Assembly: GCA_963930145.1 (NCBI GenBank)
Contig: CAWVLM010000065.1
Coordinates: 1 to 52,246, forward strand
Length of the DNA: 52,246 bases
Direction of reading: 5' to 3'
Origin: Clostridia bacterium
Lineage (GTDB): Bacteria > Bacillota > Clostridia > Christensenellales > UBA1242
Part shown: piece after piece, positions 14,512-44,534 of the stretch
Numbering within the stretch: the stretch's first letter is position 1
Layout of the letters: every line of letters begins with the position of its first letter
The notes under the pieces: generated by a model
What the model was told of the DNA's origin: nothing
What the model saw: only the letters and a program-made list of their open reading frames with translations
The model's database searches: none
Made by a program: the position numbers and the translations under genes

Positions 14512-14517
14512 ATTCAT

Positions 14518-17139: not shown

Positions 17140-17228
17140 TTTACGCTCCTATTTTTATTTTAAGCTGTTATTAGTTTTAATTGTTATTTAAAAGTTTAAG
17201 ATAAAATTATAAAATTTTTAAAAATATT

Positions 17229-17555
17229 TTAACGTTTTTTATTTTCATGTATTTTCTTTCGATATTCTTCAGCACGTTTTGCACCGCGTTTGATTTTATA
17301 CTCTATCATTTCATCAACTTTTTCGCTGCCAAACATAAGCCTTATCTGTTCTGCGCATATCAGCACATCAGCTGTCTCTTCTATGATGTTTTCTTTAACT
17401 TTTTCCATTTTTTCGTCATTTCCTATCGCACGAAAATACTTACAAAGTTCTTTGGTAAGCTCACTCATCTCTTCAATGCATATCATAATTTGTGCTTGCT
17501 CACCAAAGGTCTCATTATAATTTTTATAGCACTTTTCTCGCTCTTCTCTGTCCAT
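17229..17555 (-). CDS. MazG-like nucleotide pyrophosphohydrolase family small protein
   Basis: 108 aa. EExxE...EExxD signature (CIEEMSELTKEL ... IIEETADVLICAEQI). Confidence 0.65.
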   Translation of the reverse strand: MDREEREKCYKNYNETFGEQAQIMICIEEMSELTKELCKYFRAIGNDEKMEKVKENIIEETADVLICAEQIRLMFGSEKVDEMIEYKIKRGAKRAEEYRKKIHENKKR

Positions 17556-17596
17556 CTTTTCTTCCTTTTAATTAAGAAGTTTTAAGAATGATTTGT

Positions 17597-17917
17597 TCAA
17601 ATCCTAGTTTTTTTACTTTCCATGTTTTTCTTTTCAGCTCTTTTCAAGGCCCTGTCTAATTTATATTGTTTGATATCATTGATTTTGTCTTGACCAAACA
17701 TATATGAAAGCTGCCCCATATTTATTGACACATCTGCAAGCTCTTCTTGCAAGTTTTCTAGTGCCTTTTGAATTTCAAGTTCATCTCCTGTTGCAACTTT
17801 ACGCTTATATTTGCATATCGCTTGCAATAATTCGCCCATCTCTTCAATAGCACATTGAAATTGTGTTTCTTCGCCAAACGTATCTAAAAAAATCTTATAA
17901 TATTCTTCGTCTTTCAT
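17597..17917 (-). CDS. MazG-like nucleotide pyrophosphohydrolase family small protein (tandem paralog)
   Basis: 106 aa. AIEEMGELLQAI ... LQEELADVSINMGQL. Clearly related to the adjacent 17229..17555 product. Confidence 0.65.
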   Translation of the reverse strand: MKDEEYYKIFLDTFGEETQFQCAIEEMGELLQAICKYKRKVATGDELEIQKALENLQEELADVSINMGQLSYMFGQDKINDIKQYKLDRALKRAEKKNMESKKTRI

Positions 17918-17935
17918 AATTTCCCCCTTATATCT

Positions 17936-22382: not shown

Positions 22383-22459
22383 CGCGGGATGGAGCAGCTC
22401 GGAAGCTCGTCGGGCTCATAACCCGAAGGTCGTTGGTTCAAATCCAACTCCCGCAACCA
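22383..22459 (+). tRNA. initiator tRNA-fMet (anticodon CAT)
   Basis: 77 nt, very close to E. coli tRNA-fMet as I recall it. It has the C1xA72 mismatch, three G-C pairs in the anticodon stem (TCGGGCTCATAACCCGA) and an encoded CCA. Confidence 0.9.
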
Positions 22460-27892: not shown

Positions 27893-28097
27893 AATATTTC
27901 TCCTAAAATTTTTAAATAATTATTTTTTAATTTAATTATTTAAAATTTATCGTTTATTTTTTATTTTAATTATTTTTATCGTTTATTTTAGCTTAAATAT
28001 TTATAATAATTAAAAAATTTTAATACCTATCTATGATTTTTGATATTTTTAAATTTATTGTATTTTTATTATTTTTAAATTTATTTATAAAAATATT

Positions 28098-28715
28098 TTA
28101 ATTGTTGTCATATAAATAATCATTTTTTAAAAAAGCGAGTTTATTTTTTATTCGTGTCAGGGCATTGTCAATGCTTTTCTTTGAAAGATTGCCTATTTTT
28201 GAAATTTCATCATAGTTATAACCTTTTAGATATAAACTTAACACCTTAAACTCCATTGAAGAAAGTGTTTTTTTGATTTTATCAATAATTTCTGCAACTC
28301 GCTCTTTTTCTATAACTCTATCATCTGGTGAAGGCAGAGCAGAAGGAAAGACTATTTCAGAACTATCTTCATCATCTTCGCTGCTTAGCTGTTCAATAAT
28401 TGGCAGTGCAGATGATAGCACTTTATTTTTCTCAGAGCTTGCAACTCGCACCGCACTTTGAATTTGATGTTTGATGCAAGTGCTAGCAAAAGTTTTAAAA
28501 GACGCTGATTTATCGCCTTTGTAGTGCATGATTGCCTTGTACAGACCTATCATACCTTCTTGAACTATATCTTCAATGTCGCCGCCTGTAAGGAAATAGC
28601 TTCTTGCAATTTGGTTTACAAGCGATTTGTATTTTGTAAGCAGGGTGTTGACTGCATTTTCATCACCTTGACGTGCTTTAAAAGCAAGTTCTTCATCTGT
28701 TATTTTTTCTTCCAT
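28098..28715 (-). CDS. sigH: RNA polymerase sigma factor, SigH-like
   Basis: Close to B. subtilis SigH as I recall it (ARSYFLTGGDIEDIVQEGMIGLYKAI...; C-terminal KSIDNALTRIKNKL). Also has the conserved mrnC-rlmB-sigH neighbourhood. Confidence 0.8.
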   Translation of the reverse strand: MEEKITDEELAFKARQGDENAVNTLLTKYKSLVNQIARSYFLTGGDIEDIVQEGMIGLYKAIMHYKGDKSASFKTFASTCIKHQIQSAVRVASSEKNKVLSSALPIIEQLSSEDDEDSSEIVFPSALPSPDDRVIEKERVAEIIDKIKKTLSSMEFKVLSLYLKGYNYDEISKIGNLSKKSIDNALTRIKNKLAFLKNDYLYDNN

Positions 28716-28718
28716 TTA

Positions 28719-29441
28719 TCACCCTTGCCTTTGTCTTAAAATTTCAAATATCATCACGCCACAAGCAACAGACGCATTAAGCGAATTTACCTTTCCCATC
28801 ATAGGAAGAGAAATAATTCCGTCAACATAGCTAAGCAGTGATTTTTTTACGCCAAATCCTTCAGAGCCAATGATAATCGCAACGTTTTCTGTTAATTTTT
28901 TATTGTAAATATTCTCGCCGCCAGCTTCGCACGCATATACCCAAACATCATTTTCTTTAAGAAAATTGATTGCGTCTTTAAGATTTGTGACGCGTGCAAT
29001 AAGCATATTTGAGATGGCACCCGTGCTTGTTCTTATAACCGTTTCATTGACTTGAACAGCTCTATTTTTAGGTATGATTATTCCATGCACCCCAGCACAT
29101 TCGCAGGAACGTATGATAGCTCCAAAATTATGCGGGTCTTCTATTCCGTCAAGCAGCACTAAGAACGGCTTTTGACCAAGTTTTTTAGCCTTTTGCAAAA
29201 TATCTTCAACTTGACAATATTCAAAGTCTACCGCATCTGCAATATAACCTTGATGATGAGCCGTTTTAGATTTTTTATCTAAAAAAACTCTTGGCACAAA
29301 CTCAAATTTAATTTTGTTTTGCACGGCAAGGTTGATGATTTCATCTTTGCGACCTTGATAATTTTTATCAACATATATTTTATTGATGGTAAGTTTAGCC
29401 TCCATTGCCTGCCTAATAGCATTTTTACCTTCTATAAGCAT
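28719..29441 (-). CDS. rlmB: SpoU/TrmH-family 23S rRNA (guanosine-2'-O)-methyltransferase RlmB
   Basis: SpoU motifs (LLDGIEDPHNFGAIIRS; IIIGSEGFG; LPMMGKVNSLNASVA) and the synteny. Confidence 0.85.
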   Translation of the reverse strand: MLIEGKNAIRQAMEAKLTINKIYVDKNYQGRKDEIINLAVQNKIKFEFVPRVFLDKKSKTAHHQGYIADAVDFEYCQVEDILQKAKKLGQKPFLVLLDGIEDPHNFGAIIRSCECAGVHGIIIPKNRAVQVNETVIRTSTGAISNMLIARVTNLKDAINFLKENDVWVYACEAGGENIYNKKLTENVAIIIGSEGFGVKKSLLSYVDGIISLPMMGKVNSLNASVACGVMIFEILRQRQG

Positions 29442-29660
29442 AATATCTTCTCCATAGATAAGATTTTATCACAAAACAAATAAAAATACAACACAATTTA
29501 AAAACAATATAAATAAACAAATCTAGCATTATAATGTTAAATAAACTTAAAAAATATTTAGAAATTATTAAATTATTTAAAAACATTTTAATTGTATATA
29601 ATTTAGTGTAATTTAGTTTTTTAACATTTATTTAATATTTATTTAATATTTATTGAATAT

Positions 29661-30074
29661 TTATTTAATATTTATTGAATAATTTAAAATTTCGTTTAAC
29701 CTAGTTTTATCATCTTTTAAATAAAGATAGCCCACCAAAACTTCAAAAGCGGTAGCATAAGAATAGTCAGACTGGCTTGCGTTTTTTGCCGAGTGCTTAG
29801 GCTTTGCATTACGACCGCGTCTTATGATTTCATTTTCTTCTTCGCTTAGACTAGGCAAAAGCTCTTTCAAAACTCTTGCTTGCGATTGAGCTTTACAAAA
29901 TTTGGCAGCTTCAGTGTGATAGTTTTCCATTTTTCCATCATATAATTTTAAACAAAATTCTCGCACAAAAAGGGTATGCACACTGTCACCGATAAAAGCA
30001 AGCGGCAAAAGGTTTGTTTTAAGCAGCTTTTCAAGAAGTTCTTTATTATTGTTAGTGTGATTTATAACATCCAT
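29661..30074 (-). CDS. mrnC: mini-ribonuclease III
   Basis: LAFIGDSVHTLFVREF signature; ~137 aa. ATG at 30074 has better RBS spacing (AAAGGA) than 30080. Confidence 0.8.
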   Translation of the reverse strand: MDVINHTNNNKELLEKLLKTNLLPLAFIGDSVHTLFVREFCLKLYDGKMENYHTEAAKFCKAQSQARVLKELLPSLSEEENEIIRRGRNAKPKHSAKNASQSDYSYATAFEVLVGYLYLKDDKTRLNEILNYSINIK

Positions 30075-30284
30075 AAACATCCTTTAAAAATATGATTATA
30101 ACAATAAATAAGGCACTTGTGAATGGGCGGATTATCCGCTCTCCTTTATATACCTTAGTTTGTTCCAAGAGAGCGGAGACAAAACTTATCTTTTTATTCA
30201 CTCTATCGGACAGTCGTCAAACATTTGGTTCGCGAATAGTGATGCAAACTAAGTTTGCTCATCGAACATTTGACTTATAAAATT

Positions 30285-30523
30285 TACCCCTTGTGGGGTC
30301 TTACTTTAGCCCACAAAATCAGAGATTTTGTGGGTGCCCATGTCGGAAAACCAAAATTTTGTCTGTTAGGTTAGAGAGCGGAGATATAACCTGAAATTCG
30401 GATGCACTTAATCAGACAGTCGCCAAGCATAAGGCTTGTGCCCGCGTTCTCCGTAAGGAGTTCAAAAAAATAAAAGTTTAAACCTTTTAATTTTTTTGAA
30501 AATGCTTTGGTGTCGCCCCAATA
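30285..30523 (-). repeat. modular structured intergenic repeat, copy A (inverted relative to copy B)
   Basis: Aligns by eye, in reverse complement, with 43575-43818. Shared blocks are CCCACAAAATC..GAGATTTTG, GTCGGAAAACC, TTAGAGAGCGGA, GACAGTC, AGGCTTGTG, CCGCGTTCTC, GTAAGGAGTT and TTTTGGTGT..CCCCAATA. Confidence 0.7.
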
Positions 30524-31618
30524 CTATACATTAAATCGGAATAGCATAACATCGCCGTCTTGCACAACGTATTCCTTACCTTCCATGCGGACTTTACCTT
30601 TTTCTTTTGCCTTTACAAATGAACCTGCTTCCACAAGGTCATTATAAGATACAACCTCAGCCTTAATAAAGCCTTTTTCAAAATCAGTATGGATTTTTCC
30701 TGCAGCCTGCGGTGCCTTTGTTCCTTTTTTAATCGTCCAAGCTCTAACTTCTTTTTCGCCAGCCGTTAAGAAAGACATCAGCCCAAGCAAATCATAGCTA
30801 GTTGCAACAAGCTTTTCAAGTCCGCTTTCTCTGATGCCAAGTTCTTCTTTAAAAACCTCTCGCTCTTCAGGCTCAAGCCCTGCAAGTTCTTCTTCAATTT
30901 TGGCAGAAAGCACAATAACTTTCGCTTCTTCATTGTCCGCCTGCCTTTTCACTTGCTTAACAAAGTCGTTGTCTTCTTTTCCAACATCGTCTTCACTGAT
31001 GTTAGCAACGTAGATAACAGGTTTTGCAGTCAAAAGTTGCAAGTTTTTCATAATTTTTTGCTCTTCTTCGCCGTTAATTTCCACGCTTCTAGCTGGTTTA
31101 TTATTTTCAAGTGCCGAGTTAATTCTTTCAAGAAGATTGACAGTCGCAATCAAACTTTTGTCACCAGTTTTCACAAGTTTAGCATCTTTTTCAAGCAATT
31201 TGCTCACTTGCTCAAGGTCAGAAAGTGCAAGCTCAAGGTTTATTATTTCAATGTCACGAAGGGGGTCAATGGAGCCATTAACATGGATGATTTTATCATT
31301 TTCAAAACATCTTACAACATGCACGATTGCATCGACTTCACGAATATGGCTTAAAAATTTGTTTCCAAGCCCTTCACCTTTGCTTGCTCCAGCAACTAGC
31401 CCTGCAATATCAACAAACTCAATGGAAGCAGGGGTGATTTTTTGCGTATTATAAAGTTTTCCAAGCACCTGTAATCTCTCGTCAGGCACATCAACAATAC
31501 CAATATTTGGCTCAATAGTGCAGAAAGGGTAGTTTGCACTTTCTGCTCCCGCATTTGTTATTGCATTAAATAAAGTACTTTTACCAACGTTAGGCAATCC
31601 CACAACACCAATTTTCAT
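30524..31618 (-). CDS. ychF: redox-regulated ATPase YchF
   Basis: MKIGVVGLPNVGKSTLFNA, a TGS-like C-terminus, 364 aa. Confidence 0.95.
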   Translation of the reverse strand: MKIGVVGLPNVGKSTLFNAITNAGAESANYPFCTIEPNIGIVDVPDERLQVLGKLYNTQKITPASIEFVDIAGLVAGASKGEGLGNKFLSHIREVDAIVHVVRCFENDKIIHVNGSIDPLRDIEIINLELALSDLEQVSKLLEKDAKLVKTGDKSLIATVNLLERINSALENNKPARSVEINGEEEQKIMKNLQLLTAKPVIYVANISEDDVGKEDNDFVKQVKRQADNEEAKVIVLSAKIEEELAGLEPEEREVFKEELGIRESGLEKLVATSYDLLGLMSFLTAGEKEVRAWTIKKGTKAPQAAGKIHTDFEKGFIKAEVVSYNDLVEAGSFVKAKEKGKVRMEGKEYVVQDGDVMLFRFNV

Positions 31619-31868
31619 ATTTAATTCCTTTTAATTATTATAATTTTCTCTTGCATATTATAGCATTTAATTGCTCTTTAGTAAAGTTAAAAATGTGATT
31701 TAGTAAATATAGCGTAAAAATAAAAATTTTTCATATTTTATTCAGTAAAAATTTATGCGTTCTAAGCGGTCTAAGCATAAGAAACAAATAATAGCAAAAA
31801 ACTGAAAGAATAAAGGTTAATAATATGGTTCTATAATATTTATGGGGGCGAGAAGGGAAAAAGTCGAA

Positions 31869-31907
31869 TAAAAAAGAACATATTGATTATAATTTTCAAT
31901 ATGTTCT
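31869..31907 (-). terminator. intrinsic terminator downstream of the 1975-aa gene
   Basis: AGAACATATTGA (31875-31886) pairs with TCAATATGTTCT (31896-31907), with a T-run on the minus strand. Confidence 0.65.
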
Positions 31908-31963
31908 CTTGTTTGCTTGTTGCCCGTTCCAGTAAAACAGCTTCAACTTTCTCATTTTTGTTA

Positions 31964-34900
31964 TTATGCTTCGGGTACTTCTTGTGCGACACCTTCCGCT
32001 TCTTCAGCTTCAGCTTCAGGTGCCGCTTCAGTTCTTTCAGGCGTTCTAGCCCTCTCTTCTTCCGCTCTTCTAGCCGCCTCTGCTTCTCTATCTGCCTTTT
32101 TCTTAGAAAGGAAGCTAAAAATTCCTCGAGCTTTAGCTAAAGTCTCAGAGCGTTGTCCGCCAAGTTCGGCAGCCGAGCTTCTTGTAGTGGCAAGGATTGA
32201 AGTATTATAAGCAGCCTCAGCATCGATTTTTAATCCTACATATTTTTCTCTAATTTTAGCTATAAGTTTTTTCTTTTGACCTTTGATTTTTGCAAGAAGA
32301 GCAGCATTTGCCTTTTTATTTTTTTCGGCTATAATGCGTGCTTTTTCTGGCGAAAGACCTTTAGTGTCAATTTTTTTGCTTGAGCTTTGTCTAAGTTTTT
32401 TAATATCTTTTTCAATTCCGAGCTTCTCAAATAGATAAAGGTCAAGATTGCCAAAGTTCAATCCTTCAGGATTAAATTCGCTTGCATGAGCTTCAAAGAA
32501 TGCCGAATCTCCATCTATAAAAGCATTGATAAGGTCGTTTGCGTATTGATATTCAGGATGCTCAGCGATGTAGCCTTCAATTGCTTTCATCTTTTTTTCA
32601 AATTCCTTCCAGTCAGCCTCACATCTTTCAAGGTCGTCTTTGGCTGCATTAGCTTTGCGTTCGGCAGGAGAGTTTCCGTCTCTTGCTGCATCTGTGTGGT
32701 GTTGTTTATCTTCAAGACGCTTTTCTTGGATTTCAATCTGTTTTTGCAATTTTTTAGCCTTTTTCAAACTTTCTTCAAGTCGACCTTGCCTAATTTTTGC
32801 CAAGCCTTCTGGGGTAAATTTATCATCAATCGTTTGATTTATTTGTTTATCAATTTCTTTTATGTCGCCGTTGATGCCAAGAATTTCAAACATGTAAAGG
32901 TCATTGTTGCCAATTTCAATACCTTCAGGCATAGCCTCAGGATTTTCGATAAAGTATGAAATATCGCCATTTATAAAGCCATTTAAAATTTCAATGCCAT
33001 AAGGGTAGTCAGGATTTTTAGCAAGGTAAGAATCAATAGCCGCTAATGTTGTATCATACTTTGCTTTAGCTTCTTGAAATTTTTGAAGGTCATATTTCTC
33101 AGCATTAGCCTTGCGGTCGTCTTCTGTTTCGCCTTCTCTAGCAGCATCTGCACGACCCTTGTTATTTTCAAGACGAAGTTTTTGAATATCTAATTCTTTG
33201 CCAATGCCTTTTTTAAGTTCTTCAATCTTCGCATTTTTTTCATTTGCATCTAAAGATGTGTCTTCTAAAAGTTTAATTAGTTTATCGATTGATTTTTCAT
33301 TTATACCAGTTGCAACAAGACCTTTGTTGACCTTGTCCACGGCTTTAGCTAGGTCATCAGCCTCGAGATTTCCAGAAAGGATAGCCTCAATTTCAGTTTC
33401 GTATTTGGCTCTATTTATATCAAATACTCGAACATCTCTGTTTGCCTTGAAATATTCAATATTTTCTTCAGATGGCAATTCATCTAAAACATGCTTCTTA
33501 GCTTGCCTATATTCTTCTTGATAGCTTTTAGGTAGCAAAGACATAATATAATTTTCTCTATCTTTCGGCTTGGTGTCATTAAGTTTAATTGCAAGTTTTT
33601 CCATAAATTCTTCTTTGCTTGCAGCCTTGATTTTAGGTGAACGAGAAGCCATTGCCTCTTCATCGTAAAGTATTTCAGCAAGAAGATCAACAGTTGTAGG
33701 GTATTTGATATCTTTTTCTAGAGCTTCTTTTCTAGCTCTATATTCACTATCAACATAAGCTTTGCCATATCTTGCTCTAGCCGCAGTAAGATTTATAGAT
33801 GTTCGTCTGTCAATGGCTTGATTTTTATCCCTGCAAAATTCAGTAAATCCAGCGGCTTTTTTTGCTTTTTCTTGATTATTTGCAGAAGGTGATTCGATAT
33901 CAGAGTACCTTGCTATAATATCATAAATTTTTTCGCCATCAACTTTCTCGCGTTCCATGAAAGGCTTGATTTGCTCAATAAGAGCTTTATTAAAATCAAG
34001 ATTAGGGTCGAGCGAATGGGCTTTATCAGGTTCTGTTTTAATGCCTTGTCTTTCTTCTTCAGAGATAGGAAGATTTTCAAGAATTTCACATAAGTTACCA
34101 TACTTTCCGATATTTTCAGAAAGATTTTTCCCCGCATTTTCGACAGCGTCAAGATTTCTTGTAATTTTATGTTCTGGGTCTAGCACGCTTTCAAAAGCTC
34201 GCTGGTCATAGGCTACAGAGAATGAGCCGTCAAGGATTGCAATCGTCAGTTTTTCAGCACTATCATAAACTTTAAATTTAGCGTCATATTTTGCTGAATC
34301 GAACGCTTTTCCTTCTTTTTTAGCTTCATTGATTGCTTTTTCTCTTTCATCCTCAAGCCTAGCCCTTTGTCCTTCAATTCCAAGTCTAGTTATAATAATT
34401 TCTCTTTGCATATCAGGGGAAAGAGTTGCAAAATAAGGGTATTTTTTTGTATATTCCTTAACAATATCTTCTTCGCTATGAACAAAGAATGCATCTTTAT
34501 CATCTTTTTTTGCTTTTATATCATAATTAGCAACCAGATAAACTTTCTTGTCTGGGTCATATTGAACAAGAGGCGTACCCTTTTCTTTTTTAGCAAATGG
34601 AGATGAAAGTTGTGATAAAGCCTTAGAAATTTGTTCTTGTTTGGCATTTTGATAATTTACTCTGCCTATTGAATATTTAGCAGCGGAAATAGCGGTTGCA
34701 TCGGCTGTAGCCGTGACAGAGAGCTTGCCGATGGTCATTGAAATTTTACCATCATCACCAATAGCCACTTTATAGTCATTTACAAGAGCGGAAAGCGACC
34801 TTTTATTCAAAACAGCTCTAAAGGCTTCAGGTTCAATACCATCAATATTTTTTGCTTGGTCAACCATGAATGTTATAAGGTCATTTTTTGCAAATGTATC

Positions 34901-37891
34901 TGCAACAGCATATATAGTGTGGCTTTTTTCAAGTTTTCTTGAAGAAGGGTCTGCAAGCAAACCGCCGCTTGCGAGTATACTTGAGCCTGTTTCAGAGGTA
35001 GCCGTATAGAGAGAAGCAACTCTTCTAAAATAGCCACTTCCATTTAAAGCACCATCAATAGCCGCCATTTCGCTGCTTGGCTTATTAGGCTTAAGCATTG
35101 ACAAAGTTTCATTTACACTTGCAAGAACATTCTTTTCAACCACTCCAGTAACAGAAGCAGGGGTGTCCTTAGCAACATTATCTTCAAGTTTTTCAGCGTA
35201 ACCATCGTAGTAGGTAAGGCTATAGGTTTTCAAATAATCTTCGCTTGCATTGACACAGGCGTTAAAGGATGTGACTTTATCTTTGCTAGCAACAATGTCA
35301 TCTACGGAAGCTTTAAATTCTTGAAGAAGGTCAACTTTCTTATGCTCTTCAACGTTTGCTTTAGCTTCTTTATCAATAATTTCTATGTCTGAGTTAATTT
35401 GAGCTGCCGCATCATTTAAAATTGCAACAACTTGGTCTCTGCTTTCTTCTGGCACATTTTCAATCATTTGATTTAGAACTTCAGTTGATCCGCCATGTGT
35501 AAGGATAGCGTTTTGGATGATATCAGTGCCATATCTTTCAAAGAATTTGATTCTTTGTTCTTCTGACATCTTATCAGTGCCAGCAAGATATTTCAGTCTA
35601 TAAACGTCTGCATTTTTTACGAATTCACTTTGTTCTTCATGAAGAGTTCGTTCTTTAATTTGTGCAGAGTTTGCTTCATTTAAGGCTGCAACATAATTAC
35701 GTAGATTTTCATTGTTTTCAGGTGTAAATAGCCCTTCAACACTTGCCCTTTGGTTGGCACTAAGATTTGTAAAATAACTTATAGTAAAATCTTCAACAAG
35801 AGCCTGTCTAGTCTTAGGGTCGTCAGTTTTGGCGATTTGGTCAAGACTCATTGCCATAGCAAGGCGGGTATCAAGGTTTTCAAGGTTGCATAGATTGTGA
35901 ATGTTACTGCTGCCATCAGCTGACTCAGTAACACCAATCCCGTTTGCGTTATAAAGAGCTGCAAAATCTCTAGCAAATGCATTATCAGACAATTCTTTGT
36001 TATGCATCTTGTCAAGAACAGCTATTCTATCAGCAGAAGCGTTTTCAAGATTGTCAAGTTCTCTTTCATTTTCAAGGAAATTCTCTCTACCATCAAACTC
36101 TGCAGACTGTTCTTTTTCATAACCGTCAAGTTTATGTTTGATTCTTCTAAATGGGCTAAACACAAGTTTATCAGCGAAGGTAGATTGCAAAAGCCCAATG
36201 CCTGCCATAATTGCACCAGGAATCATTGCAAGCAGACCAACACCTGGGATAAGCGAGCAAACCATCAGCCAAATACCAATAGTTGAGAGCGTTTCGCCCA
36301 TAACATTATTGACTGTTTTCAGGGTGTCTTTAAAGGCTTTGTTTTTTTCATCATTGCGAGCCTTTTGTTCGGCAATATAGTTTTCAAGACTTTTATCTTC
36401 TTCGTCTTGTTCTGCTTTTTTGTCTTCATTAGGCTTTGGCTTAGTATCGTTGCCGCCACCCGAGCCGCCATTGTCGCTACTTTCGCCGCCATCGCCACCT
36501 TCTTCTGCTGGCTCATCTTTGTCGCCTTCAGGTTGACTATCGCTTCCAGTATTGCTCTCACCAAGATTTGTATTGTCGCCAGCTTCAGGCGTGTCGCCAT
36601 CTTGAGCTCTTGAGTCGCCGCTAGGAGTCTCATCGCCGCCATCGGAAGAATCGCCATCCCCAGACGCATCAGAGTCGTCGGGAGCGTCGCCTTGCTGCAC
36701 GGCAGACACTATTCCGTCACCATTTTTGCGTGAATGGTATAGCTCAGGGCTTATGGTTTCTGTAACCGTCAAATTTCTTTCATTTATAGAAAACACAACT
36801 GGGTTAGAAGACCTGCCGTCATGTTGTTTTGCGGCAATAGTTATCTTTTCATCAGCAATAGGTATATCAAATTGTTTTAATCCTTCACTTTTACCAGTAG
36901 TCTCTGGCATAAAATTCAGCCCACTATTATTTGTTAAAAGTTCATAAGCTTGAGCAAATTCTGGTGATGTGACGCCTGCACTAGAAATAGGGATAGGAAT
37001 TTGATAGTTATAACTAGGCTTAGAAGATGTTTCTATGTGCATAGAGTAGTGATATTTGCCATTTTCATCTTTTTCGTATAAGAAAGTAAGGTCGCTTTTA
37101 CAATTAACCATTTTGCCTTCAACGTAAAGATAACGCACTTCTTCGCCTTTAGAGTTTCTTTGTTTAACAAAGCAGCAAGGTGGGATGTCTGCACCAAAAT
37201 TAAGCTTAGTAAAAGTTATATCCTTCAAATCAACACTGCTATTGTCTTTCATGCCACAGAAATATTCACCAATTATGTTGGCTGGCAGGGTATTTACACT
37301 AGAGACAGGGCTGAATATACTTGCACCTTCTTTGCTTGAAAGCATATCTTTAACAACCCGTCTATTAACTGTTATGTCAATACAACTTTCATTGTTTGTA
37401 GAGTAGGTATATTTTGTTTTGTCGTCGCCGTCTCCATATTCTAGCGATATAGAAGTTGGCGAAGCCACAATGGTATAAGGTTTTTTATCTTTCGCACTAA
37501 CTGTGATAACAATTTGGTCGTTATTTCTTTTCATAGAAATTGCGTTACTATCAGGACCAATTTCAAGACCATTTTCACTAAATATTGCCTTTAAAGTTTG
37601 GTCAGCTTCAATGGACTGTTCTTCTTCATTTAAAAATTTGCCAAGATTTTTAAGCTTAACAAAATGTTTTTTTTCTGTTGGCTTTGCAGGGTCAGCAATA
37701 GAGTAAACAGACATAATTGACTGTTGATTATTTTCAGCCGTATTAGTTGTCAGGTCAAATAAAGTTTGCACGCCACCGCTTGCACGTGTGTTAACCATAG
37801 AAACCTTTTGCGTAAGTCTAGATTGAGTTTTGCCTTCACTAGACTTAACTCTCACATTTTGAATAGAAACCATTGGATAAGTTTTAGCCAT
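31964..37891 (-). CDS. giant orphan protein (~1975 aa) with a central TM hairpin
   Basis: Uninterrupted ORF. The likely start is ATG at 37891 after GAGG. There is no N-terminal signal peptide. From N to C: a ~440-aa domain, a D/G/S/E low-complexity acidic linker (~36400-36700), two adjacent hydrophobic segments (~36190-36300), a ~1400-aa charged helical region and two ~110-150-aa tandem repeats (32390-33175). Confidence 0.8.
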   Translation of the reverse strand: MAKTYPMVSIQNVRVKSSEGKTQSRLTQKVSMVNTRASGGVQTLFDLTTNTAENNQQSIMSVYSIADPAKPTEKKHFVKLKNLGKFLNEEEQSIEADQTLKAIFSENGLEIGPDSNAISMKRNNDQIVITVSAKDKKPYTIVASPTSISLEYGDGDDKTKYTYSTNNESCIDITVNRRVVKDMLSSKEGASIFSPVSSVNTLPANIIGEYFCGMKDNSSVDLKDITFTKLNFGADIPPCCFVKQRNSKGEEVRYLYVEGKMVNCKSDLTFLYEKDENGKYHYSMHIETSSKPSYNYQIPIPISSAGVTSPEFAQAYELLTNNSGLNFMPETTGKSEGLKQFDIPIADEKITIAAKQHDGRSSNPVVFSINERNLTVTETISPELYHSRKNGDGIVSAVQQGDAPDDSDASGDGDSSDGGDETPSGDSRAQDGDTPEAGDNTNLGESNTGSDSQPEGDKDEPAEEGGDGGESSDNGGSGGGNDTKPKPNEDKKAEQDEEDKSLENYIAEQKARNDEKNKAFKDTLKTVNNVMGETLSTIGIWLMVCSLIPGVGLLAMIPGAIMAGIGLLQSTFADKLVFSPFRRIKHKLDGYEKEQSAEFDGRENFLENERELDNLENASADRIAVLDKMHNKELSDNAFARDFAALYNANGIGVTESADGSSNIHNLCNLENLDTRLAMAMSLDQIAKTDDPKTRQALVEDFTISYFTNLSANQRASVEGLFTPENNENLRNYVAALNEANSAQIKERTLHEEQSEFVKNADVYRLKYLAGTDKMSEEQRIKFFERYGTDIIQNAILTHGGSTEVLNQMIENVPEESRDQVVAILNDAAAQINSDIEIIDKEAKANVEEHKKVDLLQEFKASVDDIVASKDKVTSFNACVNASEDYLKTYSLTYYDGYAEKLEDNVAKDTPASVTGVVEKNVLASVNETLSMLKPNKPSSEMAAIDGALNGSGYFRRVASLYTATSETGSSILASGGLLADPSSRKLEKSHTIYAVADTFAKNDLITFMVDQAKNIDGIEPEAFRAVLNKRSLSALVNDYKVAIGDDGKISMTIGKLSVTATADATAISAAKYSIGRVNYQNAKQEQISKALSQLSSPFAKKEKGTPLVQYDPDKKVYLVANYDIKAKKDDKDAFFVHSEEDIVKEYTKKYPYFATLSPDMQREIIITRLGIEGQRARLEDEREKAINEAKKEGKAFDSAKYDAKFKVYDSAEKLTIAILDGSFSVAYDQRAFESVLDPEHKITRNLDAVENAGKNLSENIGKYGNLCEILENLPISEEERQGIKTEPDKAHSLDPNLDFNKALIEQIKPFMEREKVDGEKIYDIIARYSDIESPSANNQEKAKKAAGFTEFCRDKNQAIDRRTSINLTAARARYGKAYVDSEYRARKEALEKDIKYPTTVDLLAEILYDEEAMASRSPKIKAASKEEFMEKLAIKLNDTKPKDRENYIMSLLPKSYQEEYRQAKKHVLDELPSEENIEYFKANRDVRVFDINRAKYETEIEAILSGNLEADDLAKAVDKVNKGLVATGINEKSIDKLIKLLEDTSLDANEKNAKIEELKKGIGKELDIQKLRLENNKGRADAAREGETEDDRKANAEKYDLQKFQEAKAKYDTTLAAIDSYLAKNPDYPYGIEILNGFINGDISYFIENPEAMPEGIEIGNNDLYMFEILGINGDIKEIDKQINQTIDDKFTPEGLAKIRQGRLEESLKKAKKLQKQIEIQEKRLEDKQHHTDAARDGNSPAERKANAAKDDLERCEADWKEFEKKMKAIEGYIAEHPEYQYANDLINAFIDGDSAFFEAHASEFNPEGLNFGNLDLYLFEKLGIEKDIKKLRQSSSKKIDTKGLSPEKARIIAEKNKKANAALLAKIKGQKKKLIAKIREKYVGLKIDAEAAYNTSILATTRSSAAELGGQRSETLAKARGIFSFLSKKKADREAEAARRAEEERARTPERTEAAPEAEAEEAEGVAQEVPEA

Positions 37892-38121
37892 AAAAACCTC
37901 ACATATATAAACTATAATTACATATATAATAATACCATTATAAAAGCATTTTGTCAAGAATTTAAAGGTTTATGTTGCTCTCAAGGCAAAAGATAATAGA
38001 TATTTTTAAAAAACTATTTATTATTTTGCCGCAAAATGCAATCAAGCAAAACAATCAAAAAAACATATAAATGTTTTTTGTCAAAGACTAAGCATTGCAA
38101 AAAGGCAGGGGATTAAATTCA

Positions 38122-38151
38122 ACAAAAAAGCATGAATTTTCATCCATGCTT
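38122..38151 (-). terminator. intrinsic terminator after the 753-aa gene
   Basis: AAGCATG pairs with CATGCTT, with a T-run on the minus strand. Confidence 0.55.
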
Positions 38152-38157
38152 AAATGT

Positions 38158-40419
38158 TTATTCAGCTTCATATTCTTCAACAGGGGCATTTTGAGCTGCT
38201 TTAATTTTATCTATTACGCTTTCAATGTCTGCCATATATTTGCCCACTTTCTCGCTATCTTCTTGAGTGAAATATTGTCTATAATAATCAGCTCTTGTTT
38301 CAATTGAGTTGCCAGGTCTTGCAATATTGCTTTGCTCGCCAAGTCTTGCACCAGCAACGTTTTCAGCTTCATCGGTAATTCTCGCCATTTCATCGACATA
38401 AGAAATTGTGGATGTAACTTTTTGTCCGTTTTGTTTCTTTGTACGCCTAATTTTAAGGTTTCCGATTTTCTTAGCTTTAGCATCAACTGCTTCTTTATCT
38501 TCAGGCAATTTTATCTTTGAGAGAATTGTGCCTATTCGTTTTGCAAGTTGTTCGCGAACGCCATCAGTATTCTTAGCGACAACGCTATCACCGGCAGTTA
38601 AGCGTTCTCTTTCAAGCTGGCGTTTGATTTCATCTAGTTTTTCAAGCCCTTCGCTAGCTTTTTGGTAGTTATCATCTCTAGCGGTCACATGCTCGTCTTT
38701 ATCATCTTGTAAGCTTACAGTTTGTTCTTCAACTCTTGAAATAGTGCTATCAATAGCCTCTCTTTGCATTGCATTCATAACCGCAGAAAGTTTCAAGTCC
38801 TTTTTATCTGCAACCTCAGGATTGAGAGCGTCAAGAAGGCGGCTATCAATTTCAAAGTCACGTATGTCTTTATTGCTTTCAATAAAAGCTTTAACAGCTT
38901 CGTTTGTTCTTATAAAGTTGAATAGCGTCTCAAGTTGGTCAACAGAAAGGTTTTCAAAGGCGGTATCAAGATTAGCACCTTTTTCAACATTGCTTCCAAA
39001 GATTATTTCGGCAACCATTTTAAGGTCTCCAGGGTTCGGCGAGTGTCTAACATTTTTATATTTGAAATCTTTAAGAAGGTTATCTCCAACATTATATTCA
39101 CTGCCATTTACAATAGCTTGAGCATGAGCCTTCATAATATCAAATATATCTTTCATAACTTTTTCTTGTCTAGTCGTGTAAAGATAGGATTTTCTCTTGC
39201 CATCAGAGCCCACTTCAATTTTGGCTTTAAATATATCGTTTGAGTGGTCAACAGTGTCATCATTATTATAAGCAGCAATAGCGTCAACAAGTGCGTCATA
39301 ATCAGACAAGTTTTTATCAAATACCACTTGGAAATTGCCGTTTTCAGCACTTGCCAAGTCCTGGCCAAGTGTGTTTCTATCAAATATGAAAGAGAACCCT
39401 TTTGTTTTGCCATCTTTAACAGTATCGTCATAATAAGCAACAGGGAAATCTCTTGCTATAGCACGGAAAGCGTCCATAAATTCATCTCTTCGCTCAGCAG
39501 CAGGCTTAACGATATCTTTACCTTTAACCCAGTTGCGAAGAATAGCATGTTCATCTTCATTTTCGTCATACTCTTCTTTAAGAGCGGCAAGTTTTTCAGA
39601 AATGATAGCGGCTTGACCAAGTTTTTCATCTATATCTTTAATAGCGGCATTGTTTGCTGCCACTTCTATAATGCTTGCATCATATTCTTTAATGATAGCT
39701 GTTGCATTTTTGCCAGCTTCGGCAGTTTCGTTAGCTCTTTCAACTTCGGCATCAACTCTTTCAGCAAGAAGGGCGTCACAACGTTTTTGAGCGTAAGATG
39801 CACCTTTAATATAGATGTCGGCATTATTATATGTTTCGTCATTTACAATTTCAGGGTTGAATTCAGGCAATGTATAGCCATTGATATCAGGATCAGCATA
39901 TTCTTTAACAACTTTCATAAGTTCTTCAAATGCCTTTTCTCCTTCTTCACCATAAATGTCTCTCATATTGCAAATACCAATGTAGTTTGCTTTGATATAA
40001 GCAAGTGCTCTAGCTTTTGCTTGAGTCTGTTTTGCAATAAGAGCATAAGCTTTTTTGTCCTGTTCAGAAAGATTTGTTCCACCTGCGAAATATTTAAATA
40101 GCCCATCAGCGGTAAGTTTTGTAGCATCGTTAGACGCTTGCTTTCTTTGATAGTTTAAAACGTCCATTCTGTCTTGAAATTCAGAAACATCCACAAAATT
40201 TCCTAAATTTTTAACATAATCAACGACTTCTTGAAGTGTTTTTCCTGTTGCAATTTTATCGAAATGTTTAACAGCAGCAACTTCAAACTCTCCAGCTTCC
40301 TTTACGCTAGCACTCTTTTTAAGGTTTGCCATTTTTAAGACTTTAGGGCTTTTAATCTCTCCTGCCTTTCCAGAGAAAACGCTAGCGATTTTTGAAATGA
40401 TATTTTTAAATAATCCCAT
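38158..40419 (-). CDS. orphan 753-aa charged, predicted alpha-helical protein
   Basis: RBS AAAAGGAG. No TM segment and no recognisable motif. The N-terminus MGLFKNIISKIASVF could form an amphipathic helix. Confidence 0.75.
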   Translation of the reverse strand: MGLFKNIISKIASVFSGKAGEIKSPKVLKMANLKKSASVKEAGEFEVAAVKHFDKIATGKTLQEVVDYVKNLGNFVDVSEFQDRMDVLNYQRKQASNDATKLTADGLFKYFAGGTNLSEQDKKAYALIAKQTQAKARALAYIKANYIGICNMRDIYGEEGEKAFEELMKVVKEYADPDINGYTLPEFNPEIVNDETYNNADIYIKGASYAQKRCDALLAERVDAEVERANETAEAGKNATAIIKEYDASIIEVAANNAAIKDIDEKLGQAAIISEKLAALKEEYDENEDEHAILRNWVKGKDIVKPAAERRDEFMDAFRAIARDFPVAYYDDTVKDGKTKGFSFIFDRNTLGQDLASAENGNFQVVFDKNLSDYDALVDAIAAYNNDDTVDHSNDIFKAKIEVGSDGKRKSYLYTTRQEKVMKDIFDIMKAHAQAIVNGSEYNVGDNLLKDFKYKNVRHSPNPGDLKMVAEIIFGSNVEKGANLDTAFENLSVDQLETLFNFIRTNEAVKAFIESNKDIRDFEIDSRLLDALNPEVADKKDLKLSAVMNAMQREAIDSTISRVEEQTVSLQDDKDEHVTARDDNYQKASEGLEKLDEIKRQLERERLTAGDSVVAKNTDGVREQLAKRIGTILSKIKLPEDKEAVDAKAKKIGNLKIRRTKKQNGQKVTSTISYVDEMARITDEAENVAGARLGEQSNIARPGNSIETRADYYRQYFTQEDSEKVGKYMADIESVIDKIKAAQNAPVEEYEAE

Positions 40420-40670
40420 ATTAAACTCCTTTTTATCAAGTTAAAGCAATTTGGCTTTTTCTATGCTTAATTTTATAACAATTTGCTTGAAAAGTCAATA
40501 CAAATATTTAAAAAAATGTCAAAAATCATATAACGGCAAGTTTTGACAGCATTTTAAATATATTTTTCTATCGTCGCAAACTTATTATAGCAAATATCTT
40601 TCAAATAGTTTGACATTTCTTAAAAAATCATTAAAATTATATCAGCAATTATTGTATTTAAGGAGAACAC

Positions 40671-43403
40671 ATGGGACTTTTTGGTAATGAAAACAAATCA
40701 CAGATAAAGAAATTAAGGAAGATAGCAGACAAGGTTATAGCACTTGAAGATAAATATAAAGGCTATTCAAACGAGCAGCTTCGTGCCTGCACTGATGAGT
40801 TTAAAAATAGATACAAGACGGGCGAAACTTTAAACGACCTTCTTCCAGATGCATACGCAGTTGTAAGGGAAGCGGCATCAAGAGTGCTAAATATGAGACA
40901 TTTTTATGTGCAGATTCTTGGCGGCATCGCACTTCATCAAGGCAGAATTGCAGAGATGGCAACAGGTGAAGGCAAAACTCTTGTAGCAACTCTTCCTGCA
41001 TATTTAAATGCAATCACGGGCAAGGGTGTGCATGTTGTCACTGTCAATGAATACCTTGCAAAGCGTGACGCTGATTGGATGGGAAAGGTATATAAATTTT
41101 TAGGGCTCACAGTCGGCGTTTCACTAAACAGGCAGAATAACGAGCAGAAGAAACAGGCATATCTTGCCGACATCACATATACCACAAATAACGAGCTTGG
41201 TTTTGACTACTTAAGAGATAACATGGCAAGGTCGAAAAACGAACGTGTGCAAAGGGGACTCAACTTTGCAATCGTCGATGAAGTTGATAGCATCTTGATT
41301 GACGAGGCAAGAACGCCACTTATCATAAGCGGCCGTGGCAGCAAGTCAACTGATGGCTATATGATTGCACAAAAGTTTGTAAAGACTTTAAGGCAAGATA
41401 GCGATATTGATATAGATATCAAAACCAAACAAATCAACCTTACAGATAAGGGTATTAGGAAGGCTGAAAGCTTTTATCATATAGATAATCTGTCAGATAT
41501 TGAGAATATAGAGCTAAGTCACTACATCAACAACGCCTTAAAGGCAAACTTTATCATGCATAGAGATGAAAACTATATTGTAAAGGATGGCGAAGTGATT
41601 ATAGTTGATGAGTTTACTGGTCGTCTTTCACCAGGCAGACGCTTTAGCTCTGGTCTTCATCAAGCTATTGAAGCGAAGGAAGGCGTTGATATCCGCGATG
41701 AAAATCAAACTTTTGCAACTATAACCTTCCAAAATTTCTTCCGTCTATATAAAAAATTATCAGGTATGACAGGTACAGCTAAGACAGAAGAAGGTGAATT
41801 TAGAACAATCTATAACCTTGACGTTGTCACAATTCCGTCAAATAAACCAAAGCAGAGAATAGACTATCCTGACAAGATGTACGTCACTGAAAAGGGTAAG
41901 ATTGCCGCCATTATTGAAGAGATAAAAGAGTGCGTGGAAAGTGGGCAGCCTGTGCTTGTCGGCACAATCAATATTGATAAGTCAGAGCAGCTTTCAAACG
42001 CTCTTCGACATGCAGGCATTAAGCATCAGGTATTGAACGCTAAAAATAATGAAAAAGAAAGCGAAATTGTCGCTCAAGCGGGCAGAAAGGGCACGGTGAC
42101 TATTGCAACCAATATGGCTGGTCGTGGAACTGATATCTTGCTTGGCGGTAACCCTGAGTTTATGGCAACAAAGGAAATGAGAGATAAAGGCTTTAGTGAA
42201 GAAGAAATCTTATATGCCACAGCTTTCAACTATATTGATGACGAAGCATTAAATAAGGCAAGAGAAGAATATAATAAGTTTTATTCTAAGTTCAAAGAAA
42301 TAACAGACAAAGAAAAACAAGAAGTTATCTCACTTGGTGGACTTAAGATTATAGGTACTGAGCGACATGAGTCACGCCGTATTGATAATCAGCTCCGCGG
42401 ACGTTCTGGTCGTCAAGGTGACCCAGGCTCAAGCATATTCTTCCTTTCTCTTGATGATGATTTATTTAAGAGATTTGCAACTGATAAGCTTCGCAAACTT
42501 CTTGCCTTCTTTAAGGTTGATGACTCAACACCAATTCAGTTAAAGGCGATTTCAAAGCAGATAGAAGCCTCTCAACGAAAGATAGAGCTTCAAAATTTCA
42601 GTATAAGAAAAACTGTTTTGCAGTTTGACGATGTTATGAATAAACAAAGAGAGATTATCTATAAAGAGCGTAACGAAGTGCTAGATGGTCAACCTGTACA
42701 TGACCAAATTGTCAAGATGTTCCCAGATGTTGTCACAAAGAGTGTCACAAAGATAATCTCGGACGACCGCCCATATTATGAATGGGATTTGGAAGCACTT
42801 AATAAAGAGCTTGAAAATGGTCTTCTTGATAAGGATAGCGGTGCCATCACAGAAGATTTTGTTGAAGGATGCGATGTCAATGATGTGATAGAAAAAGTGC
42901 TTGATATAATCTATAAAAAGTATGACGAACGTCACAAGGAAGTGGCAGCTATAGGCGTCAATTTTGAAGATATAGAACGCAATGTTCTTCTAAGAATGGT
43001 TGATATAAATTGGATGAGCCAAATAGAGAACATGCAGATAATGAAAGATGAAATTCTTTCTCGCCAATTTGGGCAACAAGACCCTGTCATGGCATATAAG
43101 AAGGAAGGGTTTGACATGTTCGACTCAATGATAGACAAAATCAAAGAGACCACATGTAAGATTTTATTGAATGCAAGAATACAAGCTCGTCCTGCCATGC
43201 CTGAGCAGCCAGCGCCTGCCAAGATAATTTTCACAGGCAAGCAGCTCACACCAGAAGAGCGGGCAGCACAGCAACAAAAACGCAAGCTTCAAGTTCAAAA
43301 AACAGTATATAATGATAAGCCTAAAGCGGGCAGAAATGACCCTTGTCCATGCGGAAGCGGCAAAAAATACAAAAACTGCTGCTGGGATAAAGATCACCAA
43401 TAA
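40671..43403 (+). CDS. secA: preprotein translocase ATPase SecA
   Basis: MATGEGKTLVATLPAYLNA, DEVDSILIDEARTPLIISG, TNMAGRGTDI and the C-terminal zinc motif CPCGSGKKYKNCC. Confidence 0.97.
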   Translation: MGLFGNENKSQIKKLRKIADKVIALEDKYKGYSNEQLRACTDEFKNRYKTGETLNDLLPDAYAVVREAASRVLNMRHFYVQILGGIALHQGRIAEMATGEGKTLVATLPAYLNAITGKGVHVVTVNEYLAKRDADWMGKVYKFLGLTVGVSLNRQNNEQKKQAYLADITYTTNNELGFDYLRDNMARSKNERVQRGLNFAIVDEVDSILIDEARTPLIISGRGSKSTDGYMIAQKFVKTLRQDSDIDIDIKTKQINLTDKGIRKAESFYHIDNLSDIENIELSHYINNALKANFIMHRDENYIVKDGEVIIVDEFTGRLSPGRRFSSGLHQAIEAKEGVDIRDENQTFATITFQNFFRLYKKLSGMTGTAKTEEGEFRTIYNLDVVTIPSNKPKQRIDYPDKMYVTEKGKIAAIIEEIKECVESGQPVLVGTINIDKSEQLSNALRHAGIKHQVLNAKNNEKESEIVAQAGRKGTVTIATNMAGRGTDILLGGNPEFMATKEMRDKGFSEEEILYATAFNYIDDEALNKAREEYNKFYSKFKEITDKEKQEVISLGGLKIIGTERHESRRIDNQLRGRSGRQGDPGSSIFFLSLDDDLFKRFATDKLRKLLAFFKVDDSTPIQLKAISKQIEASQRKIELQNFSIRKTVLQFDDVMNKQREIIYKERNEVLDGQPVHDQIVKMFPDVVTKSVTKIISDDRPYYEWDLEALNKELENGLLDKDSGAITEDFVEGCDVNDVIEKVLDIIYKKYDERHKEVAAIGVNFEDIERNVLLRMVDINWMSQIENMQIMKDEILSRQFGQQDPVMAYKKEGFDMFDSMIDKIKETTCKILLNARIQARPAMPEQPAPAKIIFTGKQLTPEERAAQQQKRKLQVQKTVYNDKPKAGRNDPCPCGSGKKYKNCCWDKDHQ

Positions 43404-44099: not shown

Positions 44100-44384
44100 A
44101 TGAAAACTTATGTTTATCCAGCAGTATTTATCAAAGACGAAGAAGAAAATGTTTATCGTGTGCTTTTCCCAGACCTTGAACTTACAACTGATGGAACGAT
44201 TGTTGAAGAAGCATATCTTTATGCAAGAGAGTGTTTGAAAGCATATTTTAAATATATTGAAAAGTATGATTTAGATTTCAACTTGCCAACGGATTTTGAA
44301 TATGTAAAAAAGTCTGCAAGGGCTGAAGATTATGTGATGCTTATAGATGCGGTTATTGCAGACAATGATAAACAGAAAAAATAG
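44100..44384 (+). CDS. HicB-like (UPF0150) antitoxin-family small protein, no adjacent HicA
   Basis: 94 aa. YPAVFIKDEEENVYRVLFPDLELTTDGTIVEEAYLYARECL fits the HicB N-terminal fold pattern. Confidence 0.55.
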   Translation: MKTYVYPAVFIKDEEENVYRVLFPDLELTTDGTIVEEAYLYARECLKAYFKYIEKYDLDFNLPTDFEYVKKSARAEDYVMLIDAVIADNDKQKK

Positions 44385-44534
44385 AAATTTTAAGGCAATT
44401 GACAGAAAAAGATGATTTACGCAAAATAAAATAAAAAATACTTAATAAATTGTTGACAATAAAATTAAATTGTGATAATATAATGCTAGCACTTCTTCGA
44501 TGGGGGTGTTAGTTTTTTGTTAGGAGATAAGAAA

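Follow-up and report, generated by a model that had tools for sequence, protein, structure and literature searches.

We analysed a stretch of 52,246 nucleotides (contig CAWVLM010000065.1 of the Clostridia bacterium assembly GCA_963930145.1; the whole stretch is called the window below) which carries, between secA and ychF, two adjacent genes on the minus strand. An initial annotation, made by a model from the letters alone, had singled out these genes, and we find both open reading frames (ORFs) where it had placed them. The first gene (38158..40419, ORF and translation) codes for a protein of 753 amino acids, which we call the partner; the second (31964..37891, from ATG 37891 to the stop codon at 31964-31966) codes for a protein of 1,975 amino acids, which we call the giant. 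The mechanical ORF of the giant opens earlier, at TTG 37957, and spans 31964-37957. This TTG is part of the -35 hexamer of a near-consensus promoter, TTGACA-17-TGnTATTAT (37957..37929), ATG 37891 is preceded by a GAGG ribosome-binding site, and the homologues of the giant begin with MAK, MAE or MTK at the equivalent methionine. Because of the ribosome-binding site, the position of the promoter and the N-termini of the homologues we take the giant to be a protein of 1,975 amino acids that starts at ATG 37891.

Both genes are real and under constraint, they are co-inherited at a fixed position, and they diverge in lockstep. They represent two new protein families that form a clearly delimited pair, distinctive in architecture and unusual in their rate of change.

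The giant consists of an N-terminal domain, a linker, a hydrophobic hairpin and a very long C-terminal region (the coordinates of all protein features given here and below are on the minus strand). The N-terminal globular domain (residues 1-395, 36707..37891) is variable and polar, rich in serine, threonine and aromatic residues, and has no signal peptide. In most relatives it is 26-62% identical, and neither Pfam nor the sequence profiles of the PDB gave a match to it. It is followed by an acidic linker rich in D, E, G and S (residues 396-515, 36347..36706), which varies in both length and sequence across the alignment. Residues 401-500 contain 33% D/E and 20% G and have a net charge of -26, and the linker is probably disordered. 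A short Lys-rich segment with zero net charge (residues 516-533) leads from here to the hairpin (residues 534-573, 36173..36292), that is, 40 charge-free residues centred on IPGVG, with small residues at a spacing of about seven residues.

The hydrophobic stretch at residues 530-573 is the only one in the giant with a Kyte-Doolittle hydropathy (KD) > 1.4. The charge-free span of the hairpin is 40 amino acids long in seven of the nine homologues tested and 44 in the other two; its centre reads IPGV[GN], and I548, P549, G550, G539 and G566 are invariant. The hairpin and the region following it are the best-conserved stretch of the whole protein, and the net charge of its flanks is mostly positive (0 to +3). 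All homologues of the giant have a polar N-terminus, no signal peptide and one hydrophobic region. The hairpin may be a tight double pass or a re-entrant wedge, since 40 residues allow either. Given a hairpin and no signal peptide, both large domains of the giant would lie on the same side of the membrane, and the very acidic composition of the linker and the C-terminal domain, together with the mostly positive flanks, argues that this side is the cytoplasm. The large domains of the giant are thus probably cytoplasmic.

Directly behind the hairpin stands the juxtamembrane motif DKLVFSPFRRIKHKL, which opens an all-alpha domain of about 1,400 amino acids (residues 574-1975, 31967..36172), the conserved core of the family. 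An AlphaFold2 (AF2) model covering residues 500-1699, calculated from an alignment of six sequences, is almost entirely helical (predicted local distance difference test score, pLDDT, 77.9; predicted template modelling score, pTM, 0.51), with helices of 10-55 amino acids and three small beta hairpins. The net charge is negative in most 100-residue blocks of the C-terminal domain, and the domain is kept in every homologue, including the L003 protein described below and the 24%-identical protein of the locus L008. Within it, a module of about 127 amino acids (DAAR.G...NPDYPYG..ILN.FI.GD..FF) occurs twice, at residues 1565-1691 (32819..33199) and at residues 1717-1844 (32360..32743). The two copies are 41% identical (E = 6e-34), and the module is present once in L003 and L008. 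The protein ends with a K-rich basic stretch and an acidic E/A/R-rich tail (residues 1845-1975, 31967..32359; net charge +10 at residues 1801-1900 and -4 at 1901-1975, with D/E up to 23%). This tail is found in all homologues and is poorly conserved.

In the partner there is no hydrophobic segment, and its AF2 model (14 sequences in the alignment, pLDDT 81.4, pTM 0.62) is mostly helical. The protein starts with a cationic helix, MG[LFI]F..I..K.. (residues 1-17, 40369..40419), which is conserved across the 14 family members, with M1 invariant and K10 nearly so. The helix has a net charge of +2 to +4 and a hydrophobic moment of 0.24-0.64; in the model it spans residues 5-14, has a low pLDDT and is detached from the body of the protein. 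It is a candidate for an amphipathic membrane-binding helix. The most conserved motif in the 14-sequence alignment, QAKARALAYIKANFVGICNM (residues 133-152, 39964..40023), also has the lowest rate of nonsynonymous substitution (dN) of the partner, and five of its residues (R137, K143, N145, I149, N151) are invariant in the 14 sequences, down to 23% identity. It lies in a helical region at 39-209, after which the model shows a continuous 77-residue helix (residues 211-287, 39559..39789, pLDDT 90-96), a part in which helices are mixed with two beta hairpins (300-540), and a continuous 60-residue helix (residues 544-603, 38611..38790, pLDDT 92-97; both long helices as assigned by DSSP). The C-terminal part is helical again, with one more beta hairpin and an acidic tail at the end.

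Much of this anatomy had been anticipated by the initial annotation: the Asp/Gly/Ser/Glu-rich linker, a transmembrane hairpin without a signal peptide, large domains on the same, probably cytoplasmic, side, a helical C-terminal region of some 1,400 residues with an E/A/R tail, and a soluble, helical partner all agree with what we see. Two points of the anatomy need correction. The N-terminal domain of the giant, put at about 440 residues, exists, has about 395 residues, and is absent in one lineage (L003). The N-terminus of the partner is compatible with an amphipathic helix, as proposed; its likeness to the start of SecA comes down to four residues (MGLF), to which we give no weight.

We found the order secA, 753-like gene, giant and ychF, with secA and the 753-like gene diverging, in at least 12 distinct loci. 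These include the closest relative (L012), a second group (L001, L004, L018) and the loci L005, L003, L020, L024, L025, L010, L008 and L021, as well as the paired L006 and L014; one more locus (L016) is a fragment with secA and a 753-like gene only, where the contig ends. In every locus that has the 753 gene, this gene and secA diverge from a common intergenic region of 251 bp. L021 is a human-gut contig, and the genome records are labelled as uncultured Clostridia or as Firmicutes metagenome-assembled genomes. The pair is thus conserved together with secA and ychF in relatives, one sublineage without the 753 gene apart. It had also been said to sit at a break in synteny; we see instead an arrangement that is fixed across the clade and that does not single out the pair as an insertion.

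In the sublineage just mentioned (L013, L022, L023) we were not able to find a homologue of the 753 gene within 10 kb, even by profile search. The intervals in question are 2703-3106 in L013 and 8044 to about 8800 in L022 and L023. The giant of this sublineage (P0006) has 2,056 amino acids, and its cluster is the richest in metagenomic members. The partner is therefore no absolute requirement at this locus, given that this sublineage carries the giant with no 753 gene close by. In L003, the orthologue of the giant (12804-17357) has 1,517 amino acids and lacks the globular N-terminal domain; the hairpin is directly preceded by some 200 residues of low-complexity sequence rich in N, S, D and E. 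We therefore regard the hairpin and the C-terminal domain as the core of the family. In L014, the orthologue (12479-18165) is represented by overlapping ORFs of 617 and 1,296 amino acids in different frames; a frameshift or an error of assembly could account for this, or the gene may really be split near its middle.

Next, we compared the rate at which the pair and its neighbours change. In L012, SecA and YchF are 97% and 96% identical to the proteins of the window and SigH is 100% identical, as compared with 82% for the partner and 69% for the giant. In the second group, SecA and YchF are both 96% identical, the partner 56% and the giant 52-55%; in L003 the values are 91% for SecA, 89% for YchF and 36% for each protein of the pair. 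In the most distant loci, SecA is still 84-87% and YchF 84-90% identical, as against 24-32% for the partner and 24-34% for the giant; where SecA is down to 84%, the pair has dropped to 24-31%. Judged by these identities, the pair diverges about ten times faster than its housekeeping neighbours, in a clade that is shallow (SecA is at least 84% identical throughout). The architecture is kept down to 24% identity.

The ratio of nonsynonymous to synonymous substitution rates (dN/dS, Nei-Gojobori method) against the L012 orthologues is 0.20 for the partner and 0.27 for the giant; for the neighbours SecA, YchF, RlmB and mini-RNase III (mini-III) it is 0.02-0.12. In the pairwise test for positive selection, no 100-codon window of the pair rose above a dN/dS of 0.53. 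By this measure the pair is under relaxed purifying selection, is not decaying, and shows no diversifying selection detectable in the pairwise test. Across the loci, the identity of the partner is correlated with that of the C-terminal domain of the giant (r = 0.99, n=16) and with that of SecA (r = 0.89). This agrees with vertical inheritance at a high rate common to both genes. Because the clade is so shallow, common descent would by itself keep the pair next to secA, and the adjacency is a poor argument for a functional link.

Neither protein gave anything above noise in Pfam, NCBIfam, PHROGs or PADLOC. The best PHROGs match had E = 0.29 (families of unknown function), PADLOC returned no family at E up to 1, and the only match of the family alignments among PDB sequence profiles was that of the acidic linker to HUWE1, a low-complexity match. 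Neither sequence contains a Walker A (GxxxxGK[ST]), HExxH, HxH or CxxC motif. We also compared the models with solved and predicted structures using Foldseek (PDB for both models, BFVD for the giant), taking E <= 0.001 as the criterion for a match. The best E values were 0.31 for the partner against the PDB, 6e-3 (template modelling, TM, score <= 0.09) for residues 500-1699 of the giant against the PDB and 1.3e-2 (TM < 0.1) for the same residues against BFVD. The top-ranking rows comprise MukB, SMC5/6, the dynein stalk, colicin Ia, nucleoporins and phage minor tail proteins, with TM scores of 0.05-0.11, and as far as the models go we consider this a generic likeness of long helices.

A word-indexed search gave six clusters for the giant and seven for the partner, and repeating it with the profile of the giant family added no sequences. 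When 1.84 billion representative proteins were searched exhaustively with a hidden Markov model of the partner family, 14 proteins matched, and ten of these were full length. Nothing resembling the pair came up in 2.9 million viral contigs, and no annotation source gives a name to any family member. We also asked whether the two families are paralogous, and rejected this (hhalign probability 0.7%). That profile and structure searches lead to no well-known family, such as an adhesin or a tape-measure protein, is in line with the initial annotation, which had found no recognisable motif and called the genes orphans. They are indeed without an annotated family; what we see, on the other hand, is two small families within one clade, and with divergence as fast as this their orphan status is most simply explained by a failure to detect homology outside the clade.

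What could such a pair do? The reading we favour, tentatively and with somewhat less than even confidence, is that of a structural scaffold or hub, specific to the clade, anchored in the membrane and facing the cytoplasm. The hairpin of the giant would insert into the membrane, whether as a tight double pass or as a re-entrant wedge, and the acidic linker, the variable N-terminal domain and the 1,400-residue helical C-terminal domain would all remain in the cytoplasm. The C-terminal domain would then form a helical platform close to the membrane, and the flexible acidic linker with its terminal globular domain could serve as a tether that catches a cytosolic partner. The 753-aa protein, with its two very long helices and small alpha/beta subdomains, would reach the same membrane surface by its cationic N-terminal helix and act together with the giant. 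Under these assumptions the pair would be a scaffold, landmark or hub and not an enzyme. If it is a scaffold, a constraint on architecture and biophysical properties would explain why the sequence changes so fast while the domain plan stays stable. A bolder version, which we think unlikely, makes the pair the core of an undescribed membrane-anchored organising apparatus that, in this group of gut Clostridia, determines polarity or division or positions the secretion machinery, with folds that have no counterpart in the PDB. Positional counterparts that are no longer recognisable by sequence may lie between secA and ychF in neighbouring clades.

Several points weigh against the scaffold. The role is argued from anatomy and by exclusion, with no homology or fold match to back any function, the topology is read from the sequence, and the interaction between partner and giant is putative. 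The support from the positive-inside rule is modest, both flanks of the hairpin being weakly negative in the P0006 lineage, and the hairpin is the only zone of the giant model in which the confidence of AF2 is low. The giant can adjoin secA without the 753 gene, as it does in one sublineage, and the loci behind the correlations given above are phylogenetically non-independent. Finally, fast evolution at a dN/dS of 0.2-0.3 also fits proteins engaged in antagonistic interactions.

There are other ways to explain the pair. It could be an accessory module of the Sec system that assembles beside SecYEG and SecA and tethers or organises secretion, its acidic C-terminal tails maybe binding the basic zinc-finger tail of SecA. 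The 251-bp region shared by the 753 gene and secA, the position of secE only 4 kb away, the acidic, E-rich tails at the ends of both proteins and the short N-terminal helix with which both the partner and SecA start would suit such a role. On the other hand, with SecA 84-97% identical in the clade, descent alone explains the adjacency, and secA adjoins the giant even in the sublineage that has no 753 gene nearby; SecA changes slowly, at a normal rate, while the pair is about ten times faster; the MGLF match is limited to four residues, and Pfam revealed no Sec-related domain. We consider this explanation rather improbable. We hold a similarly low opinion of a second one, in which the giant is an exported or membrane-inserting protein, with the hairpin as insertion or translocation element, the N-terminal domain as cargo and antagonism as the cause of the fast evolution. 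Export of the giant is unlikely because the linker is highly acidic and the C-terminal domain acidic. Furthermore, we found no toxin, protease, glycosyltransferase, receptor-binding, holin or immunity domain in or beside the pair, which sits at a fixed chromosomal position and is inherited vertically, without the pattern of a polymorphic toxin; dN/dS stays < 0.55 throughout the pair, and conservation is highest in the hairpin and the membrane-proximal domain, not in a putative effector. What speaks for this explanation is that a large protein without a signal peptide, soluble in all its other parts, contains a hairpin of about 40 residues, that its N-terminal domain is variable or dispensable, and that divergence is very fast compared to the neighbours. 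In colicins, diphtheria toxin and the large clostridial toxins, which have no signal peptide either, such hairpins serve insertion or translocation, and colicin Ia is among the non-significant fold matches of the partner, yet with E = 0.33 and a TM score of 0.10.

Potentially, the pair could also be morphogenetic, belonging to sporulation or the spore envelope and being recruited to the membrane by the amphipathic helix and the hairpin. Morphogenetic coat proteins are typically lineage-specific, evolve fast and have no catalytic motifs, and some of them use amphipathic helices for membrane targeting (SpoVM, SpoVID/SipL). The pair lies 4 kb from sigH, yet no sporulation gene is adjacent and both genes have near-consensus promoters of the sigma-70 type, not of the forespore or mother-cell type (as judged by consensus match only), so that we regard this possibility as still less probable. 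That the pair is a remnant of a phage (a tape-measure-like protein), of a defence system or of another mobile element beside secA is already largely refuted, and we give it hardly any credence. Large helical proteins with internal hydrophobic segments do resemble tape-measure proteins, and a weak 60-nucleotide inverted repeat surrounds the region at 27.9-44.4 kb. The BFVD entries for tape-measure or minor tail proteins, however, have E = 0.015-0.44 and TM < 0.1, the viral contigs contained nothing similar, no PHROGs match was significant, and the defence role that the initial annotation had left open finds no PADLOC match. The GC content is like that of the flanks, the repeat is not conserved, no integrase or phage genes lie nearby, and descent is vertical.

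Returning to the scaffold or hub, we compared the pair with known systems. It belongs to none of them, and polar or septal hub and landmark proteins appear to be its nearest functional analogues. In TipN, two transmembrane segments lie side by side and precede a large, helical domain in the cytoplasm, and TipN and coiled-coil cytoskeletal proteins change fast in sequence while their plan is conserved. The same is described for HubP/FimV, a scaffold and landmark protein (PMC12918733). The giant resembles HubP/FimV, TipN and EzrA in being large, with a membrane anchor, a long cytoplasmic region and no catalytic domain, and its residues 401-500 (net charge -26) recall the extensive, acidic and poorly conserved cytoplasmic region of HubP/FimV. 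On the other hand, it has neither the periplasmic LysM domain (Pfam) nor the N-terminal transmembrane segment of HubP/FimV, nor its FimV/TPR C-terminal domain (Pfam, NCBIfam). A further difference from the hub proteins is that the giant is anchored by a hairpin halfway along the chain, flanked by a large domain on either side. In sequence and fold it resembles none of them, and the host belongs to the Clostridia, not the Proteobacteria.

For the anchor itself, the closest analogues are bilobed hairpins such as those of chlamydial Inc proteins or of the atlastin/reticulon type. A bilobed hydrophobic domain of about 40 residues is known from the Inc proteins of chlamydiae, which are type III secretion substrates inserted in the host vacuole (PMC3048545). 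The charge-free span of the giant, with its central IPGVG, is 40 residues long (44 in two homologues) and is kept in nine homologues. Inc proteins, however, are specific to the Chlamydiae, and no type III secretion genes were seen in the window; we treat the likeness as an analogy of topology only. Hairpin anchors with the flanking domains on one side and Pro/Gly at the central turn are found in atlastin/mitofusin, reticulons and oleosin. Atlastin, mitofusin and dynamin-like proteins differ from the pair by their GTPase domain, of which neither a G1 motif nor a dynamin match in Pfam is present here, and the dynamin-like BDLP matches the partner model with a Foldseek E of 2.7.

Among the best-ranked, non-significant Foldseek rows, SMC/MukB/JetC and colicin Ia share with the models very long helices and a small separate domain in the middle of the chain, at E values of 0.006-0.4 and TM scores of 0.05-0.11. 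In contrast to SMC/MukB/JetC, the pair has no Walker A/B ATPase heads and no SMC_N match. Unlike colicins and large clostridial toxins, it has no glucosyltransferase, peptidase C80, CROP, colicin pore or diphtheria T domain (Pfam, NCBIfam). Vipp1 and PspA, which start with MGLFDR or MGIFSR, bind membranes, and the partner resembles PspA/IM30/Vipp1 by its MG[LFI]F start and the cationic helix, a resemblance of about five residues. It differs from PspA/IM30 in being three times longer, in its predicted architecture and in having no PspA_IM30 match in Pfam at E up to 1. Phage tape-measure proteins, finally, stand among tail genes; the neighbours here are secA and ychF, and neither PHROGs nor Pfam gave a significant match.

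The pair takes up 8.2 kb per genome in an uncultured clade of gut Clostridia, at least one member of which is on a human-gut contig (L021). Its predicted expression signals are strong, though libraries, annotation sources and solved structures are silent on it. It is also an example of how orphans originate: the proteins have reached 24% identity while SecA is still 84% identical, and after such drift sequence searches would miss any relatives that lie outside the clade. To our knowledge, few membrane-anchored organisers are known in bacteria of this phylum. If the pair is a scaffold, it would represent a new organiser architecture, with a central 40-residue hairpin, large cytoplasmic domains on both sides and a peripheral partner; if it is a toxin or an exported protein, it would be a new kind of membrane-inserting giant without a signal peptide. 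The conserved hairpin and the N-terminal helix of the partner are clear experimental handles.

The expression signals are the following. The sigma-70-type promoter of the giant (37929..37957, minus strand) reads TTGACA-17-TATTAT with a TG extension and agrees with the consensus at 11/12 positions; that of the 753 gene (40470..40498, minus strand) agrees at 10/12 and is divergent from the secA promoter (40610-40637, plus strand, 11/12). All three are predicted, that of the giant by consensus match alone. The 753 gene has an AAGGAG ribosome-binding site. Each gene has its own hairpin resembling an intrinsic terminator, as had been noted before: the one after the giant (31864..31910, minus strand; stem and U-run 31910..31872) has a 15-bp stem and a free energy of -16 kcal/mol (z = -5.45, 0/200 shuffles as stable), and the one after the 753 gene (38118..38151, minus strand; 38151..38128) a 10-bp stem and a T-run. 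The GC content of the pair (0.365-0.387) is inside the range of the window. Downstream of the giant lie ychF, the mini-RNase III gene, rlmB, sigH (4 kb from the pair) and metG; on the opposite side, divergently, lie secA, a HicB-like ORF, rpmG, secE (likewise at 4 kb), nusG, rplK and rplA.

The longest inverted repeat of the window has 60 nucleotides (27912-27971 / 44424-44483, 73%), lies in AT-rich intergenic DNA and brackets the segment from sigH to secA and the HicB-like ORF (27.9-44.4 kb). Its score of 21 is slightly above the maximum of the shuffled sequences (19.5), and it has no counterpart in four related loci, so the idea that the pair sits in a segment delimited by inverted repeats is not supported. 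An inversion of the bracketed segment would restore the order sigH-rpmG-secE-nusG, which we take to be that of B. subtilis, and an old inversion is possible. The synonymous rate (dS) between the window and L012 is uneven among adjacent genes (sigH 0.016, rlmB 0.12, ychF 0.32, mrnC 0.45, secA 0.77), and this unevenness (28098-31618, 40671-42404) suggests a recombination mosaic.

The cumulative GC skew has its minimum, and the gene orientation switches, at the intergenic region between the 753 gene and secA (about 40.4-40.7 kb). A replication origin at this divergence point was considered and rejected: there are no DnaA boxes there, and the skew minimum probably reflects gene orientation. The DnaA boxes cluster at 10.8-11.1 kb instead, with four perfect ones (TTATCCACA) and one with a single mismatch within 330 bp (10819-11145), between hisS and a gene for a UvrD-like helicase. 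This cluster is a candidate for oriC or for a DnaA-regulated region; dnaA itself is not in the window.

Further features of the window include a single tRNA gene (22383-22456, plus strand), which is the only Rfam match at the gathering threshold. The HicB-like ORF (94 amino acids, 44100-44384, plus strand) lies between secA and rpmG and keeps its position in relatives, where the Pfam matches to the HicB family are faint or weak; no obvious HicA partner was seen. Next to rplA we find a third giant orphan ORF (47366-52171, minus strand) of at least 1,601 amino acids, which runs off the end of the window. Neither Pfam nor PADLOC nor PHROGs matched it, NCBIfam gave only noise that stayed far under the cut-offs, and a relationship to the giant was rejected, as the two have no similarity. 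This third ORF is beta-rich and rich in S, T, N and Y, ends with a transmembrane segment and RKRQKVK, and probably codes for a very large protein of the cell surface that is held in the membrane by its C-terminus. Its counterparts in relatives have 2,813-2,818 amino acids and occupy the same position (L003 1-1994, L014 1-3299, L024 1-2854).

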